A DNA stretch of 36,462 nt from Verrucomicrobiota bacterium (GTDB lineage: Bacteria; Verrucomicrobiota; Verrucomicrobiia; Verrucomicrobiales; DEV007). Where the stretch lies: contig JASFYY010000137.1 of the NCBI GenBank assembly GCA_045046875.1, forward strand, positions 1 through 36,462, read 5' to 3'. Position 1 is the first letter of the stretch; every line of letters begins with the position of its first letter. Below, piece after piece: positions 1-18,797 of this stretch. The notes beneath the pieces were generated by a model. That model saw nothing but the letters and a program-made list of their open reading frames with translations, ran no database searches and was not told the origin of the DNA. The position numbers were made by a program, and so were the translations under genes.

Positions 1-1860
1 AAGTTTGCCATTGATCCATATTTCCCAGGATATCGGATATCGTTCGGCTGAGGAACTTTCTTCACTGTTAATTTTTTGGATCCAAGTAGAAGATGAAAAG
101 GTGGGGGATTTCCCATTGTTTGTTATATGGATATTTTTCCACAACAAGCGGGATTCCTCTGGGAGGGATGCAGGTTTTTTCGGATCACCAATAGCGATAT
201 AGGAGCCTTGGGTTTGTTGGGTGGCCAGATGGAATACAAAGGAATGGTGGGAGGGGTGAGCTGTTGACAATAGCTTGTCGAGCATCAGTACGTCCGGTCG
301 ATCAAGAGGCACGTCTGACCAGATGTCGGGGGCGGCCAGAAAGCTCTCAGCTACTGCCCAGATTACGATTTTGGCATTCGAATGATCAATGTTTCTTGCG
401 AACTGATTGGGTGCAATGGCGGCACTTCCAGATGCCGAGGCGATTTTGTTGACCGGCGTTCTCAATTCCTTGACTAAGTGCGGCTGGATGCCTGCTGCTC
501 CTGCCCCAGAACCATAGGCATTGGAAAAGGAATCGCCGAGTAAGTGGATTTCTGCATTAGGAAAATTTGCATTCAGGAGTTTACGGTCACTGTCTTTTTC
601 GGCGTTAACATGATATAGCGGCTGCATTTCCGTTACTTGTTGACGAGAAGGAGGACGATCAAATATCGGCATGGTGTAAGGCAGTTTTTCGAGGACCGCG
701 CTTTCAGTAAACACAGCAGAATGGTTGGTGGAAGAGAGTTTGCTGTAAGAAGGCCGCTGTTTGATGGTATCAGCAATCAAGGTGGCAGCCAAACGTGCGC
801 CTGATGGTGACCAGTGAGTGTCGTTGCGGCGATAGACGGGATAGGCTTCGCCTTCGAAATCTTGATAGGAGTTTGAGAGAAAAGTGGGTGTCAGATCGAC
901 GCAAGTGACGCCTTCAGCTTCCAGCGCATTCATAAGATCCCGGACAGCCGAGTTGATGCGTCCGTCGATCGCAGGGTCATATTCTATATTGGTGGCAATT
1001 CCGGGATAGATGGTGGTTGAGCGCGGAATGGGGACAAAAACCAGATCGATGCCTTTTTCATCGAGGTGTTGTTTGAAAAGAAGAATGCTTTTCAGTGGGC
1101 CGAGAGCATTTTTTTTGGTTGGTTGTATTTTCCAGAAGTCAGTTTCATACATTGCCGGCACATGACTCCAGAAGAAGAAATCCTGAATCAGACCACCGGT
1201 GACTTTCCCTTGGTGGGCGATCAGAGTCTGGATGATGAGATTACGATTGGAACTAGGAGCTCTTGCGTTTGTTTTCGCGGTTTTGTTGCGGGAAGTGAAT
1301 GCATCTTCTTCACTCCACGACGATACAAATAGGATTTGATTATCAGAAAAGGGTAAGTCATTGGATTGCCTCAGATTTTTTATTTTATCCGGAACCTGTG
1401 AGTATGGGATGGTGTTGAGAGTGATCACGTCCCCAGGTTTGAGATTGACTGCTGGGTAGAGCACGCGCTTTCGGAAGGCATAAAAGACCAAGTCAACATT
1501 TTCACCGGACGAGGAGCCTGATTTGGAGATGGGTTGGCAGAGGGTGTGGGTCAGGCAATCCGGGTAGGGACTTTTTTTAGGGTTCGGGATTCGTGAAATT
1601 TCAAGAACCCGGTAGCTCTGCGGGGCATTATTAGTTTCATCTGCAGCAGCAGCTTTAAGTAGTGGGAAATGAAAAAAAATCCCAATTAGAAACAGTAAGT
1701 GTAAGAGTTTTGAATCGGAGCGATATATCTTATATGTCCCGACCCATTTGCCCACGCATGCAGCGATTAGGTTTATTTTATTTTTTTCGGAGTAGGAGTT
1801 TTCCATTTCTGGGGTAGGGCTGATGTCCTTTATCCATGCATTTCCTTGCTCCGGCAACAT
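1..1860 (-). CDS. AlgX/AlgJ-like (SGNH-type) polysaccharide O-acetyltransferase domain protein, partial (runs off the left edge)
   Basis: Not in the ORF track because no stop lies in the window. Hand translation of the minus frame from ATG 1860 (alternative ATG 1806) gave no stop in the segments checked down to position 1. It has a hydrophobic N-terminal segment (LLHLLFLIGIFFHFPLLKAAAA), GIDLVFVPIP, VYRRNDTHWSPSGA (the DxHW motif of AlgJ/AlgX) and IHLLGDSFS. Confidence 0.75.
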   Translation of the reverse strand, partial: MLPEQGNAWIKDISPTPEMENSYSEKNKINLIAACVGKWVGTYKIYRSDSKLLHLLFLIGIFFHFPLLKAAAADETNNAPQSYRVLEISRIPNPKKSPYPDCLTHTLCQPISKSGSSSGENVDLVFYAFRKRVLYPAVNLKPGDVITLNTIPYSQVPDKIKNLRQSNDLPFSDNQILFVSSWSEEDAFTSRNKTAKTNARAPSSNRNLIIQTLIAHQGKVTGGLIQDFFFWSHVPAMYETDFWKIQPTKKNALGPLKSILLFKQHLDEKGIDLVFVPIPRSTTIYPGIATNIEYDPAIDGRINSAVRDLMNALEAEGVTCVDLTPTFLSNSYQDFEGEAYPVYRRNDTHWSPSGARLAATLIADTIKQRPSYSKLSSTNHSAVFTESAVLEKLPYTMPIFDRPPSRQQVTEMQPLYHVNAEKDSDRKLLNANFPNAEIHLLGDSFSNAYGSGAGAAGIQPHLVKELRTPVNKIASASGSAAIAPNQFARNIDHSNAKIVIWAVAESFLAAPDIWSDVPLDRPDVLMLDKLLSTAHPSHHSFVFHLATQQTQGSYIAIGDPKKPASLPEESRLLWKNIHITNNGKSPTFSSSTWIQKINSEESSSAERYPISWEIWINGKL

Positions 1861-16310: not shown

Positions 16311-16352
16311 GTTGTGCTTGAACTTTGGCGCAAACTCAGTCATGGATGGTGG

Positions 16353-16829
16353 ATGAAATGGATACAACTACTGTTGGTGGTGTTGGCTTTGAGCGCTTGG
16401 TCTTGCGAGACTTTGAAGCTGAAGGGGACGCATGGGAAAGATGCCAAAGGAGAAGACGAGCAACCTACCTCACTGGCCGATATTGATACCAGCGATTTGC
16501 CCGCGGAATATGTGCCGGGGGTTCGCCCAGTGGTGACCTATTACGTCGATGAAATGTCCAATAGCCAGTTCACTTTTGATGATGAAATCGGGGACTATAG
16601 GGTGAAGTTGTTTCCTGACCATACTTACAGTTTCACTGCGACGGCCAAGGATAAATCGAGAAGCAGCACCAAAGGAGGCTTGTGGAAATGGCACCGGGTG
16701 GGGCCTGACCAGGGGTTTTTGATGCTGGACAACCGGCGCTGGTTTTTAGGTTTCACTACTTTGGATGAAGCCAAGGCGACGACCAAGGGGGATCAACGTT
16801 CCTTCATACTGAAATTCTCTCATATGTGA
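16353..16829 (+). CDS. Hypothetical lipoprotein
   Basis: From ATG 16353: MKWIQLLLVVLALSAWSC, a type II signal peptide with lipobox Cys, followed by a beta-rich domain. Confidence 0.7.
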   Translation: MKWIQLLLVVLALSAWSCETLKLKGTHGKDAKGEDEQPTSLADIDTSDLPAEYVPGVRPVVTYYVDEMSNSQFTFDDEIGDYRVKLFPDHTYSFTATAKDKSRSSTKGGLWKWHRVGPDQGFLMLDNRRWFLGFTTLDEAKATTKGDQRSFILKFSHM

Positions 16830-16855
16830 TATCGGCTGTATGACACAAGATTTAC

Positions 16856-16883
16856 TTGTATCGCTCCGGAATCAGGGTAATCT
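16856..16883 (+). promoter_or_regulatory. Putative sigma70 promoter of the riboswitch transcript
   Basis: TTGTAT (16856-16861), 16-bp spacer, TAATCT (16878-16883). The predicted start at about 16889-16891 lies just 5' of riboswitch P1. Confidence 0.5.
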
Positions 16884-16891
16884 CTAGTCAA

Positions 16892-17034
16892 GCATCAGGA
16901 GTGGTTTTGCTCGAAAGAGCGAGATCCGGCAACCTGGCGATGGAGAAGCCAAGGTGCCTTGGGAGCAGAAATGTTTCCGATGTGCGAGTAGTCCGGTTCG
17001 TTTGAGCGGGGTGAGCTCGAACAGAAATTCTCCA
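16892..17034 (+). ncRNA. SAM riboswitch, SAM-I/IV variant architecture
   Basis: P1 GCATC (16892-16896)/GATGT (16979-16983). J1/2 AGGAG. P2 GGTTTTGCTC-GAAA-GAGCGAGATC, with no kink-turn. P3 GGCAACC...GGTGCC SAM-binding core with TGGC/GCCA extension. P4 GGGAGCA-GAAA-TGTTTCC. P5 TTTGAGC/GCTCGAA (17001-17021). Pseudoknot between L3 TGGAGAA (16941-16947) and TTCTCCA (17028-17034). Confidence 0.88.
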
Positions 17035-17059
17035 AGGGAGCGAAAAAGAATTTTCGATG

Positions 17060-17092
17060 ACCGCCGATCCTGATGGGAACGGCGGTTTTTTT
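17060..17092 (+). terminator. Intrinsic terminator forming the riboswitch expression platform
   Basis: ACCGCCG (17060-17066)...CGGCGGT (17080-17086) stem with inner TCC/GGA pairs, followed by a T run to 17092. It lies between the aptamer and the ATG at 17160. Confidence 0.85.
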
Positions 17093-17159
17093 GTGTTCTT
17101 TTTCGAGCCCTGAAAAGAACTGGTGTGATTGGAAATAAAATATAACCAAATCACATAAC

Positions 17160-17447
17160 ATGACTTACGAAGATATATTACAAGGATCGAGAGCCGGTAA
17201 GGGCTCATCACAGTTGAACCACGGGGGTGTCACCGTTGATCAAATTGGTCAAAAGGATCGCCTTGCAGTGAGGGTGGATGCGGCAAATCCGGATCACCAC
17301 TTATGGAATAACCGAGGCACCTGGTGGTGTCACTTCACTTTACACAAGGCGGACTATACCGCGCAGCGGGTGCGGGTGTCGCTCAAGACACGGGATCAAT
17401 CTGAGGCGCGGGTGCGCCGGGATGAAGTCTTGGCAGCGATCGCTTGA
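17160..17447 (+). CDS. Small hypothetical protein, putative stand-alone arm-type (integrase N-terminal / DUF6538-like) DNA-binding domain; SAM-riboswitch regulated
   Basis: 95 aa: NPDHHLWNNRGTWWCHFT...RVRVSLKTRDQSEARVRRD. The HL-x(4)-G-T-W...R-x-R-x-SL-x-T-x-D-x(3)-A-R pattern recalls three-strand-plus-helix arm-binding domains. It is the first ORF after the riboswitch terminator. Confidence 0.75.
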   Translation: MTYEDILQGSRAGKGSSQLNHGGVTVDQIGQKDRLAVRVDAANPDHHLWNNRGTWWCHFTLHKADYTAQRVRVSLKTRDQSEARVRRDEVLAAIA

Positions 17448-17478
17448 TTGGTAGGAAATAAAAAGCCGGAGAGGAAAA

Positions 17479-17625
17479 ATGAATACGGAAACGCGTAAAT
17501 CCAAATCCACAAGTAAAGTGATCGGGGGGCAGGTTTTTTGGAAAAGGGGGAAACCACCTCTGCCGAGTAATTTCAAGCAATGGCCCTTGCCGATGCGTTT
17601 GCGATTTTTGACTCAGCAAGGGTAA
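17479..17625 (+). CDS. Unannotated 48-aa basic small protein, probably co-transcribed with the 17160 gene
   Basis: Too short for the ORF track. Hand translation gives MNTETRKSKSTSKVIGGQVFWKRGKPPLPSNFKQWPLPMRLRFLTQQG*. Shine-Dalgarno-like GGAGAGG at 17468-17474. It starts 31 bp after the upstream stop and fills the gap up to the convergent ppk2 stop. Confidence 0.55.
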   Translation: MNTETRKSKSTSKVIGGQVFWKRGKPPLPSNFKQWPLPMRLRFLTQQG

Positions 17626-17633
17626 TGGCTGTT

Positions 17634-18719
17634 TCAGGTTAGATTCAAAGGGTGGTTTTTTTTGTCGTAAACAGAGGAAGCCTGACCGACGATCAAGGGG
17701 TCGGGAGTGCCTAGGAAATCGGGATTTTTGTCTGGATAGTCGAGATTATGCAGGAAGTGACGCATGCACTCGATGCGGGCGCGTTTTTTGTCATCGGATT
17801 TGATCACTGTCCAAGGGGCATCAGCGGTATCGGTGTAGAAAAACATCGATTCTTTGGCGCGGGTGTAATCGTCCCAGCGGTTTAACGATTCCATATCGAT
17901 CGGGCTGAGCTTCCATTGTTTGAGAGGATCTGTCTTGCGGGCGTGGAAGCGCCTCAGTTGTTCTAGGCGACTGACTGAAAACCAATACTTGTTAAGGGTG
18001 ATGCCGGCGTTGGTGAGCATGCGTTCCAGCAAGGGGCATTGGCGCAGGAAGTCAAGATACTCCACTGAGTTGCAGAATCCCATGACCCGTTCGACGCCGG
18101 TGCGGTTATACCAGGAGCGGTCAAAAAAGACCATTTCTCCGTTGGTGGGCAGGTGTTGTATGTAACGTTGAAAATACCACTGGCCGCGTTCTTTGTCGGT
18201 GGGTTTTTCCAAAGCGACCACATGGGCGGAGCGGGGATTAAGGTGCTCCATGAAACGTTTGATCGCCCCGCCTTTGCCGGCTGCATCGCGGCCTTCAAAA
18301 ATGGTCACAATTTTTTCAGCCCCTTCACTGACCCAGCGCTGTACCTTTAATAGTTCAGCTTGCAAGCGCAGTTTTTGCTGCTCGTATTCTTTGTTACTGA
18401 GTTTTTTCTGATAGGGGTAGATGCCCTTTTCGTAATTGACTTCCAGGGTGACTTCATTGGTCAGTCCTTTGGTGATCCGTTTGGAGTCGATTAGTTCCGA
18501 TAGGTCGGCAAATTCGGTTTCCAAGGCTTTTTCGTTTTTCTCTGGATCTGAAAAATCGGGTGCAGTGTGTTGATAGGGATCATCCAGATCGACATCGGAC
18601 ATTTCAGGAGTATGGCCGCCTTCCTGTTTGGCGTCGTTTGCATCTTCTGTCGGAGTCGATGCGCTTACGGAAGCTTTCTCTGAATCCGATTTTCGGGCCT
18701 TTTTTTTGGAGATGCTCAT
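17634..18719 (-). CDS. ppk2: Polyphosphate kinase 2
   Basis: Walker A FEGRDAAGKGG plus QWYFQRY, FFDRSWYNR, WKLSPID and APWTVIKSDDKKRAR. Start set at ATG 18719; it carries an acidic, low-complexity N-terminal extension. Confidence 0.92.
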   Translation of the reverse strand: MSISKKKARKSDSEKASVSASTPTEDANDAKQEGGHTPEMSDVDLDDPYQHTAPDFSDPEKNEKALETEFADLSELIDSKRITKGLTNEVTLEVNYEKGIYPYQKKLSNKEYEQQKLRLQAELLKVQRWVSEGAEKIVTIFEGRDAAGKGGAIKRFMEHLNPRSAHVVALEKPTDKERGQWYFQRYIQHLPTNGEMVFFDRSWYNRTGVERVMGFCNSVEYLDFLRQCPLLERMLTNAGITLNKYWFSVSRLEQLRRFHARKTDPLKQWKLSPIDMESLNRWDDYTRAKESMFFYTDTADAPWTVIKSDDKKRARIECMRHFLHNLDYPDKNPDFLGTPDPLIVGQASSVYDKKNHPLNLT

Positions 18720-18797
18720 AGGTGTGCCAGAGTTTACGTTTCTCGCTGACGAAAGGAAACTCAAATCCAAGTAAAAACTAAAAATGCTTTGGGCAGT

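Follow-up and report, generated by a model that had tools for sequence, protein, structure and literature searches.

A SAM-I/IV-type riboswitch preceding a putative small DNA-binding regulator and a microprotein in Verrucomicrobiales, with a candidate operator shared with methionine genes

Riboswitches that control regulatory proteins are represented by the c-di-GMP riboswitch Vc2, located before tfoY, by the B12 switch controlling pocR, and by SreA/B, which act on prfA. In these systems a riboswitch signal is passed on through a transcription factor, as it would be at the locus described here. Compared with them, the locus involves another ligand or mechanism and other families of factors, and a SAM switch acting in cis would control an activator of the synthesis of SAM precursors that is also subject to positive autoregulation. 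The protein regulators MetJ, MetR, SahR, and SamR, as covered by the relevant parts of PMC4239095, share with it the plan of a regulator whose site precedes both Met genes (metX, metB/metC-like) and the regulator's own gene. In contrast to their mode of sensing, SAM would here be detected by the mRNA rather than by a protein; the box described below is a non-palindromic 7–8-mer, whereas the operators of SahR and SamR are palindromes of 20 and 24 bp, respectively (PMC4239095, same parts), and a SahR-like gene coexists in the same genome, beside metK. With the SAM-I/IV riboswitches (RF01725), as presented in the sections on this class in PMC2864571 and PMC6890682, the element has in common the core consensus, an unbroken P2 without PK-1, the presence of P4 and P5, a pseudoknot that pairs L3 with the 3′ tail, and the predicted OFF behavior. 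It differs from them in that a putative regulator and a microprotein are controlled instead of an enzyme or transporter, in that its score lies at the edge of the cut-off, and in that a single anti-P1 strand is used for a terminator or, alternatively, for a hairpin at the start codon. The open-access literature searched contained no account of this protein family, box, or relay, although the association of riboswitch and gene may appear in the gene-context tables of Weinberg et al. Both the riboswitch class and riboswitch-controlled regulators are already known, and a Met relay from a SAM riboswitch to a protein seems not to have been described.

The stretch of DNA analyzed (36,462 nucleotides, referred to as the window) covers positions 1–36,462 of contig JASFYY010000137.1 in the assembly GCA_045046875.1 of a Verrucomicrobiota bacterium, the host genome being 94.7% complete. 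The initial annotation had recognized here a promoter, a SAM riboswitch, a terminator, two small ORFs, and a convergent ppk2 gene, and each of these elements was recovered (Table 1). The putative promoter consists of TTGTAT (16856–16861) and TAATCT (16878–16883) separated by 16 nt, with the CTTG motif kept in relatives, and was not listed by a consensus promoter scan. The terminator is formed by a hairpin (17059–17087, −18.6 kcal/mol) that leads into seven U residues (17086–17092), and a simple scanner did not list it. Both ORFs are as originally delimited. The convergent gene encodes PPK2 and ends at 17634, therefore a Met enzyme within this transcript is impossible, as had been argued. A TATGACA box at 16839–16845 had been overlooked. 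Just upstream of it lies an ORF of 171 residues (16314–16829), with no Pfam family, positioned directly behind a KefC-like K+ antiporter gene; it ends 9 nt before the box and is common only to the closest relatives. The unit may also be transcribed by read-through from this upstream gene ending at 16829.

Table 1. Positions of the elements of the riboswitch locus within the window.
Element	Position	Strand	Basis or remark
Candidate activator box GTATGACA	16838–16845	+	About 10 nt upstream of −35
Putative sigma-70-type promoter, TTGTAT-16-TAATCT	16856–16883	+	Sequence; CTTG conservation
SAM-I/IV-type aptamer: P1 16892–16896/16979–16983, unbroken P2, P3, P4, P5	16892–17034	+	RF01725 match; covariation
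L3 loop UGGAGAA, 5′ strand of PK-2; partner UUCUCCA 17028–17034	16941–16947	+	Covariation
Anti-P1 UCCUGAUG, inner stem and loop of terminator	17068–17075	+	Complementary to aptamer 5′ strand
Intrinsic terminator, predicted SAM-bound OFF state	17059–17092	+	Hairpin and U7
95-aa protein, candidate activator	17160–17447	+	Homologues; predicted fold
48-aa microprotein	17479–17625	+	Conserved core; codon-position entropy
Convergent ppk2, 3′ boundary outside the system	17634–18770	−	PF03976, E 8.6e-105

The covariance model RF01725 matches the window at 16887–17035 (41.0 bits, E 5.9e-5), and the helices as well as PK-2 covary, in agreement with the aptamer originally proposed. The match misses the Rfam gathering threshold of 41.1 bits by 0.1 bit, and an Rfam search at the gathering threshold gave nothing. 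Among homologous copies, four exceed the cut-off (L029, 46.2; L149, 42.1; L130, 41.4; L031, 41.3 bits) and two fall below it (L013, 39.4; L036, 38.6 bits); at E ≤ 0.01, 6 matches were obtained among the 13 loci scanned. Elsewhere in the host genome, RF01725 matches nothing at E ≤ 1. The fold of the region 16885–17100 has a z score of −4.22, with none of 200 shuffled sequences being as stable. In an alignment of 25 diverse sequences, 95.4% of the cells are paired and 18 of the 30 pairs have two-sided changes, a result biased in favor of the tested structure by its having been drawn from one of these sequences. None of 500 shuffles reaches this covariation, and slid controls yield 27–53%.

The SAM-contact nucleotides of SAM-I/IV given in the portion of the supplement to Weinberg et al. 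(2010, PMC2864571) used here are U7, G11, A45, U57, G58, and U88. Their equivalents T5, G9, A41, T65, G66, and T91, provisionally mapped by consensus and numbering, are invariant in 25 of 25 copies. As outlined for this class in the corresponding passages of PMC6890682, P2 is not split, PK-1 is absent, and P4 is present. Here P2 forms a simple hairpin that varies in length and has no internal loop; the base of P2 is paired in 96% and that of P4 in 95.9%, both with two-sided changes, and P5 is paired in 94.1% (25 sequences). PK-2, formed by L3 with the 3′ tail, is paired in 85.6%, with four of its five pairs changed on both sides; its compensatory variants include GGAAAA/UUUUCC, CAGAA/UUCUG, and AGGAGU/ACUCCU. 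The aptamer accordingly fits the SAM-I/IV class as it appears in these parts of PMC2864571 and PMC6890682, and it is predicted to bind SAM. Assignment to the SAM-I class, with its kink-turn P2 and PK-1, was rejected on the grounds that RF00162 gave no match (E ≤ 0.1, host genome, controls positive) and that an internal loop is absent from P2. The 94.7%-complete host genome yielded no further SAM-I or SAM-I/IV riboswitch; the SAH riboswitch model gave no match there, but its controls gave none either. Some relatives deviate in layout, with additional sequence separating the promoter from the aptamer in L130 (~150–260) and an additional short ORF between the riboswitch and the gene in L078 (upstream of 4001).

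The complement of the first P1 strand, CCUGRUG, is found in 61 of 64 leaders. The expression platform is of the terminator type in 9 of the 64 and consists of a hairpin over or abutting the start codon in 51, with one leader having both. For the window, the state combining P1 with the terminator was computed at −83.9 kcal/mol and the anti-P1 state at −81.5 kcal/mol, a difference of 2.4 kcal/mol that includes neither the pseudoknot nor the ligand. The anti-P1 sequence lies inside the terminator, and the riboswitch is therefore predicted to be an OFF switch, silencing the genes when SAM is high. The expression at low SAM suggested in the initial annotation is upheld as a prediction, with anti-P1 located within the terminator or the start-codon hairpin.

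The 95-aa protein has 213 close homologues and belongs to a Verrucomicrobiota family. Grouped at 50% identity, its relatives make up 972 clusters, and the 150 best of these all have lengths of 73–141 residues. A search of GTDB genomes located it at 376 loci, and the analysis used the best 80 of them. Twenty-eight positions are invariant in 34 sequences, and the ORF is regarded as real. The gene is present in 47 of 151 genomes of the class and in 80 of 161 of the order; by family, the counts are 32/44 in that of the host, 40/44 in f2, 2/44 in f3, 2/23 in f53, and 3/3 in f54. Tandem or neighboring duplicates of the gene are seen in some f2 genomes (L052, L158, L477, L479).

The predicted model of the 95-aa protein (block pLDDT 78–91 over residues 41–95) consists of strands 48–51, 54–62, and 68–74 followed by a helix, 80–94. 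This arrangement of three antiparallel strands and then a helix, spanning residues about 43–95, is like that of the arm-type domains of integrases and of AP2 domains. The best VIA structure matches are the integrase arm-type domains 3jtz (Z 4.7, rmsd 2.1, 48 residues aligned) and 1z1b (Z 4.4), with the AP2 domain 2gcc at Z 3.9, although a Z of 4.7 is weak, in the range of common arrangements, and the arm and AP2 matches are tied with unrelated folds. Foldseek comparison of the model with the PDB gave no match at E ≤ 0.001, and a PDB search with the protein sequence gave no significant one. DUF6538 matches at 17.6 bits against a cut-off of 27 and is similarly sub-threshold in 38 of 45 relatives; the nearest named clusters in the Atlas are PF02920 and PF12167 (0.90). 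DNA binding by this protein is likely, because the model, the arm-type and AP2 matches, the Atlas neighbors, and the sub-threshold DUF6538 match agree, and the resemblance to nucleic-acid-binding domains remarked on earlier is thereby retained as a predicted fold with weak structural matches. Arm-type and AP2 domains bind short, non-palindromic sites. With the integrase arms (lambda, HPI, Tn916) and AP2/GCC-box domains (3jtz, 1z1b, 2wcc, 2gcc; PF02920, PF12167, DUF6538), the protein shares a three-stranded sheet packed on a C-terminal helix, predicted in its case, and conserved Trp, Arg, and His residues on the strands. Unlike them it stands alone, its matches are weak structurally and sub-threshold by profile, and its proposed role is that of a bacterial metabolic activator. 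A tyrosine integrase was rejected as an identification, since no recombinase lies in frame with or adjacent to the ORF and the best 150 of the 972 relatives are as short as stated above.

The 48-aa ORF carries a core, LPxNFxxWPxxMxRR(Y/F), at residues 28–44. Of 81 loci, 56 have this core just downstream of the first gene, whereas all 16 loci without a riboswitch lack it; the ORF often overlaps the stop codon of the first gene. Codon-position entropies over 55 distinct cores are 0.81/0.77/1.44, with six of the columns fixed by the search pattern; outside these columns, an invariant Arg uses all six codons. The reading of this ORF as spurious was rejected on its recurrence and on the codon-position constraint; conservation with synonymous variation supports the second small protein as well. 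Twelve database proteins match the 48-aa profile, one of them annotated beside a homologue of the 95-aa protein; no Pfam family was matched, the Atlas gave no usable match, and none of 268 proteins has the motif fused into a longer homologue. The ORF largely co-occurs with an N-terminal MTYxD extension of the first protein, a pattern that phylogeny alone could explain. We can speculate, weakly, that the peptide is a partner, cofactor, or modulator of the 95-aa protein in one clade.

The association of riboswitch and gene recurs, as the initial annotation had suggested looking for: among the best 80 of the 376 GTDB loci, 63 have the riboswitch, 16 do not, and one is ended by a contig edge. By a loose pattern, the riboswitch is also present in 23 of 29 class-level copies outside family f2, and four Akkermansia flags by the same pattern were read as chance matches in upstream coding DNA. 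A recurrent link to Met genes was found too. In 13 of the 16 riboswitch-less loci the gene follows, on the same strand, a Cys/Met PLP enzyme gene, and in 22 of the best 80 loci a TonB receptor–metH unit stands divergently, back to back with it. The gene heads metY–metX operons in L127–L130 and metK operons in five loci (L461–L463, L466, L478). In these five, box and gene head a divergent metK whose product is 37–49% identical to host MetK, across several families, and these loci may represent a mobile SAM-supply cassette. In genus g2, inferred to be Akkermansia, all 32 sampled genomes contain the gene, which has lost both the riboswitch and the box there. There it follows one gene resembling those of ribosomal proteins (L125, L126, L155–L163) and metX follows another (L121–L124), both without riboswitch or box; from their sequences, we take these neighbors to be L28 and L36, respectively. 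The metH gene of the host is split over two contigs (end of C105, and C126), most likely by an assembly break.

TATGACA is present in 63 of 63 riboswitch promoters, all from the best 80 of the 376 GTDB loci. Its distance from the aptamer is 51–53 nt in 58 of them and 61–62 nt in 5, so that it lies upstream of the conserved CTTG of the −35 region by about 10 nt or, in the latter group, by a further helical turn. CTTG itself occupies this place in 53–57 of the 63 promoters, and the −10 element, TAnnnT, is weaker. The box is a single non-palindromic 7–8-mer with unconserved flanks. In a class-level scan of 40 regions from about 60 matches, it precedes 24 of 29 copies outside f2, and neither riboswitch nor box accompanies any of 13 core f2 copies; among further copies, it was found in 15 of 17 outside the core f2 clade and in 0 of 5 inside it. 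In core f2, 40 of 44 genomes have retained the gene, yet riboswitch and box are both absent there. A role of the box as the −35 element of an upstream promoter was rejected, there being no conserved −10 at 17 nt. That it serves the divergent TonB receptor–metH promoter was judged unlikely, because its position is constant relative to the riboswitch side and the receptor promoter carries its own SahR-like site.

Boxes of the same geometry are located in the host genome before metX (C18) and before a two-gene operon for cystathionine synthase/lyase-like enzymes (C31). In 30 genomes of the riboswitch clade, strict TATGACA within 300 nt of the gene start precedes metX in 20/30 and the transsulfuration operon in 3/28, but metY in 0/27 and metF, metK, and cysK in 0/30 each; on this 0/117, a general promoter element was rejected. 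The relaxed pattern ATGAC[AG]-8..11-T[TGA]G, chosen after the metX and transsulfuration data were known, gives 25/30 and 18/28 for these two, 1/27 for metY, 1/30 for metF, and 0/30 for both metK and cysK. The −35 that follows the metX box is a non-canonical TGG or TAG in 21 of 29 cases. Sixty fresh genomes gave a strict metX box in 13 of 16 gene-bearing members of the host family, one more having TATGACG and two neither box nor variant; these counts overstate independence, since all 13 positives belong to one genus. Genomes without the gene have the metX box in 0/12 of the same family and 0/32 overall, among them G215, a member of the genus of the fresh positives. In gene-bearing genomes of other families, a metX box or variant was found in 0/12 (f2 0/5, f3 0/2, f53 0/2, f54 0/3), some of these metX windows possibly being misplaced or operon-internal. 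At class level, where metX has its own promoter, gene-bearing genomes comprise two with the box, one with a variant, one with none, and one ambiguous, against 0/8 of the gene-less ones; for metY–metX operons the box is present in 0/6 gene-bearing genomes and 1/21 gene-less ones. The one gene-less genome with the box before metY–metX is G047 (94% complete), whose assembly yielded no copy of the family gene.

Additional targets were sought by pattern scans, but no convincing new member emerged: G178 gave 18 matches against 9 in the control, the gene itself and metX included, and scans of f2 and f3 genomes likewise gave no convincing target. With the query used, the first transsulfuration gene was missed in three genomes, two of f2 and one of f3. 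In G178, a TTATGACG box with promoter geometry precedes the gene of a 207-aa membrane protein (L388), a possible extra target. In many relatives, an inverted repeat, AACAGGGTT..AACCCTGTT, surrounds the transsulfuration operon's −35, and it also occurs in a few other intergenic places (L225–L247, L197, L208, L384). It represents a second operator or else a small repeated element, and was not found by pattern in the host genome.

Another, conserved site, ATCA-N3/4-ATCA(A/C)GATTTGT, lies upstream of metK (G000:C15:55787–55848; L320–L349), beside a divergent gene of the ArsR-methyltransferase (SahR-like) type that forms a separate locus. A similar ATCA..GATTTGT site precedes the TonB receptor–metH unit (L017, L023, L028, and others; G000:C105, upstream of 14445). 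The pattern of metK and metH sites agrees with the core SahR regulon as set out in the pertinent part of PMC4239095, and a SahR-like regulon covering metK–ahcY and btuB–metH is probable in Verrucomicrobiales. The 95-aa protein matches no RHH, LysR, or ArsR-methyltransferase family in Pfam or NCBIfam, and its membership in the MetJ, MetR, SahR, or SamR groups was rejected. The relay to a Met/SAM regulon envisaged in the initial annotation therefore gains a candidate operator and targets, but it is narrower than a general regulon of that kind, because metK and btuB–metH carry the SahR-like site and metY, metF, and cysK have no box.

Sequence comparison documents the aptamer class and its covariation, the anti-P1 segment, the conservation of both ORFs, and the spacing and gene-specific distribution of the box. 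On these features we base a mechanism that we regard as reasonably probable, in which the 95-aa protein, made when SAM is low, binds TATGACA and activates metX, the transsulfuration operon, and its own gene. SAM would stabilize P1 and PK-2, freeing CCUGAUG to complete the terminator in the window or the start-region hairpin in most relatives, and the genes would be off at high SAM because of this completed hairpin. Shortage of SAM would open the switch and allow the 95-aa protein to accumulate; bound just upstream of −35, it would recruit RNA polymerase at promoters with a weak −35. Activation of metX and of the cystathionine synthase/lyase operon would then yield more O-acetylhomoserine and homocysteine, the protein reinforcing its own transcription until SAM recovers, with a separate SahR-like repressor handling metK–ahcY and btuB–metH.

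The box could instead be read by another activator, for example one of the OmpR/PhoB type, with the riboswitch-controlled proteins being low-SAM effectors that have some other job. The reverse complement of the box presumably resembles a PhoB half-site, and the host contains a GTGACA-N5-GTGACA direct repeat at 11 nt (G000:C115:6603–6630), 9 nt before CTTG and upstream of the genes of a PhoB-like response regulator and histidine kinase, itself a candidate Pho-type box. The persistence of the gene without the box in core f2, and the box in G047, would also be accommodated. PhoB/OmpR-type boxes, however, are direct repeats of half-sites about 11 nt apart, and a second TGACA half-site at 10–12 nt is present in 0 of 63 promoters; moreover, where the gene occurs in unrelated contexts the box has moved with it, and none of the 32 gene-less genomes has the box at metX. 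We consider this reading unlikely.

Alternatively, the 95-aa protein could bind the box, or RNA, and act as a repressor, as an anti-repressor of the SahR-like factor, or post-transcriptionally rather than as a direct activator. It is very small and without an evident activation domain, the structural matches include RNA-binding mitoribosome proteins with AP2-like folds (9g6k, 9i05), and negative autoregulation is common. Against such roles stand the location of the site upstream of −35, in either of two positions that are helically phased, the degenerate −35 of the box-bearing metX promoters, and the presence of SahR-like sites at other promoters, and repression of metX at low SAM would oppose homeostasis; we hold them to be quite improbable. 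Least credible is that the gene derives, as a relic with no regulatory role, from a mobile element of the integrase type and has come to lie behind a riboswitch left over from a lost Met operon. The likeness to integrase arms, the patchy distribution (47 of 151 genomes of the class) with its extra copies, and the few distant copies having neither riboswitch nor box (L150, L151, L162) would suit such an origin. The invariant positions, the uniformly short lengths of the best 150 of 972 relatives, the coding constraint on the second ORF, and a riboswitch that covaries across orders yet stays before this gene make it very hard to sustain.

Returning to activation by the 95-aa protein, we can tentatively propose, as a possibility held with less confidence than the mechanism itself, that a lone domain of the integrase-arm/AP2 type became an activator under the control of a SAM riboswitch and its own operator. 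It would form a portable positive-feedback switch in which one RNA sensor runs a scattered methionine regulon, joined in one clade by a microprotein partner. If that is so, the protein would represent a new class of bacterial activator. If the relay itself is correct, it would provide a methionine regulator for a widespread and little-studied phylum and a new family of bacterial transcription factors with a fold known from integrases and from the AP2 factors of plants and apicomplexans, and a single riboswitch would control distant genes through a protein.
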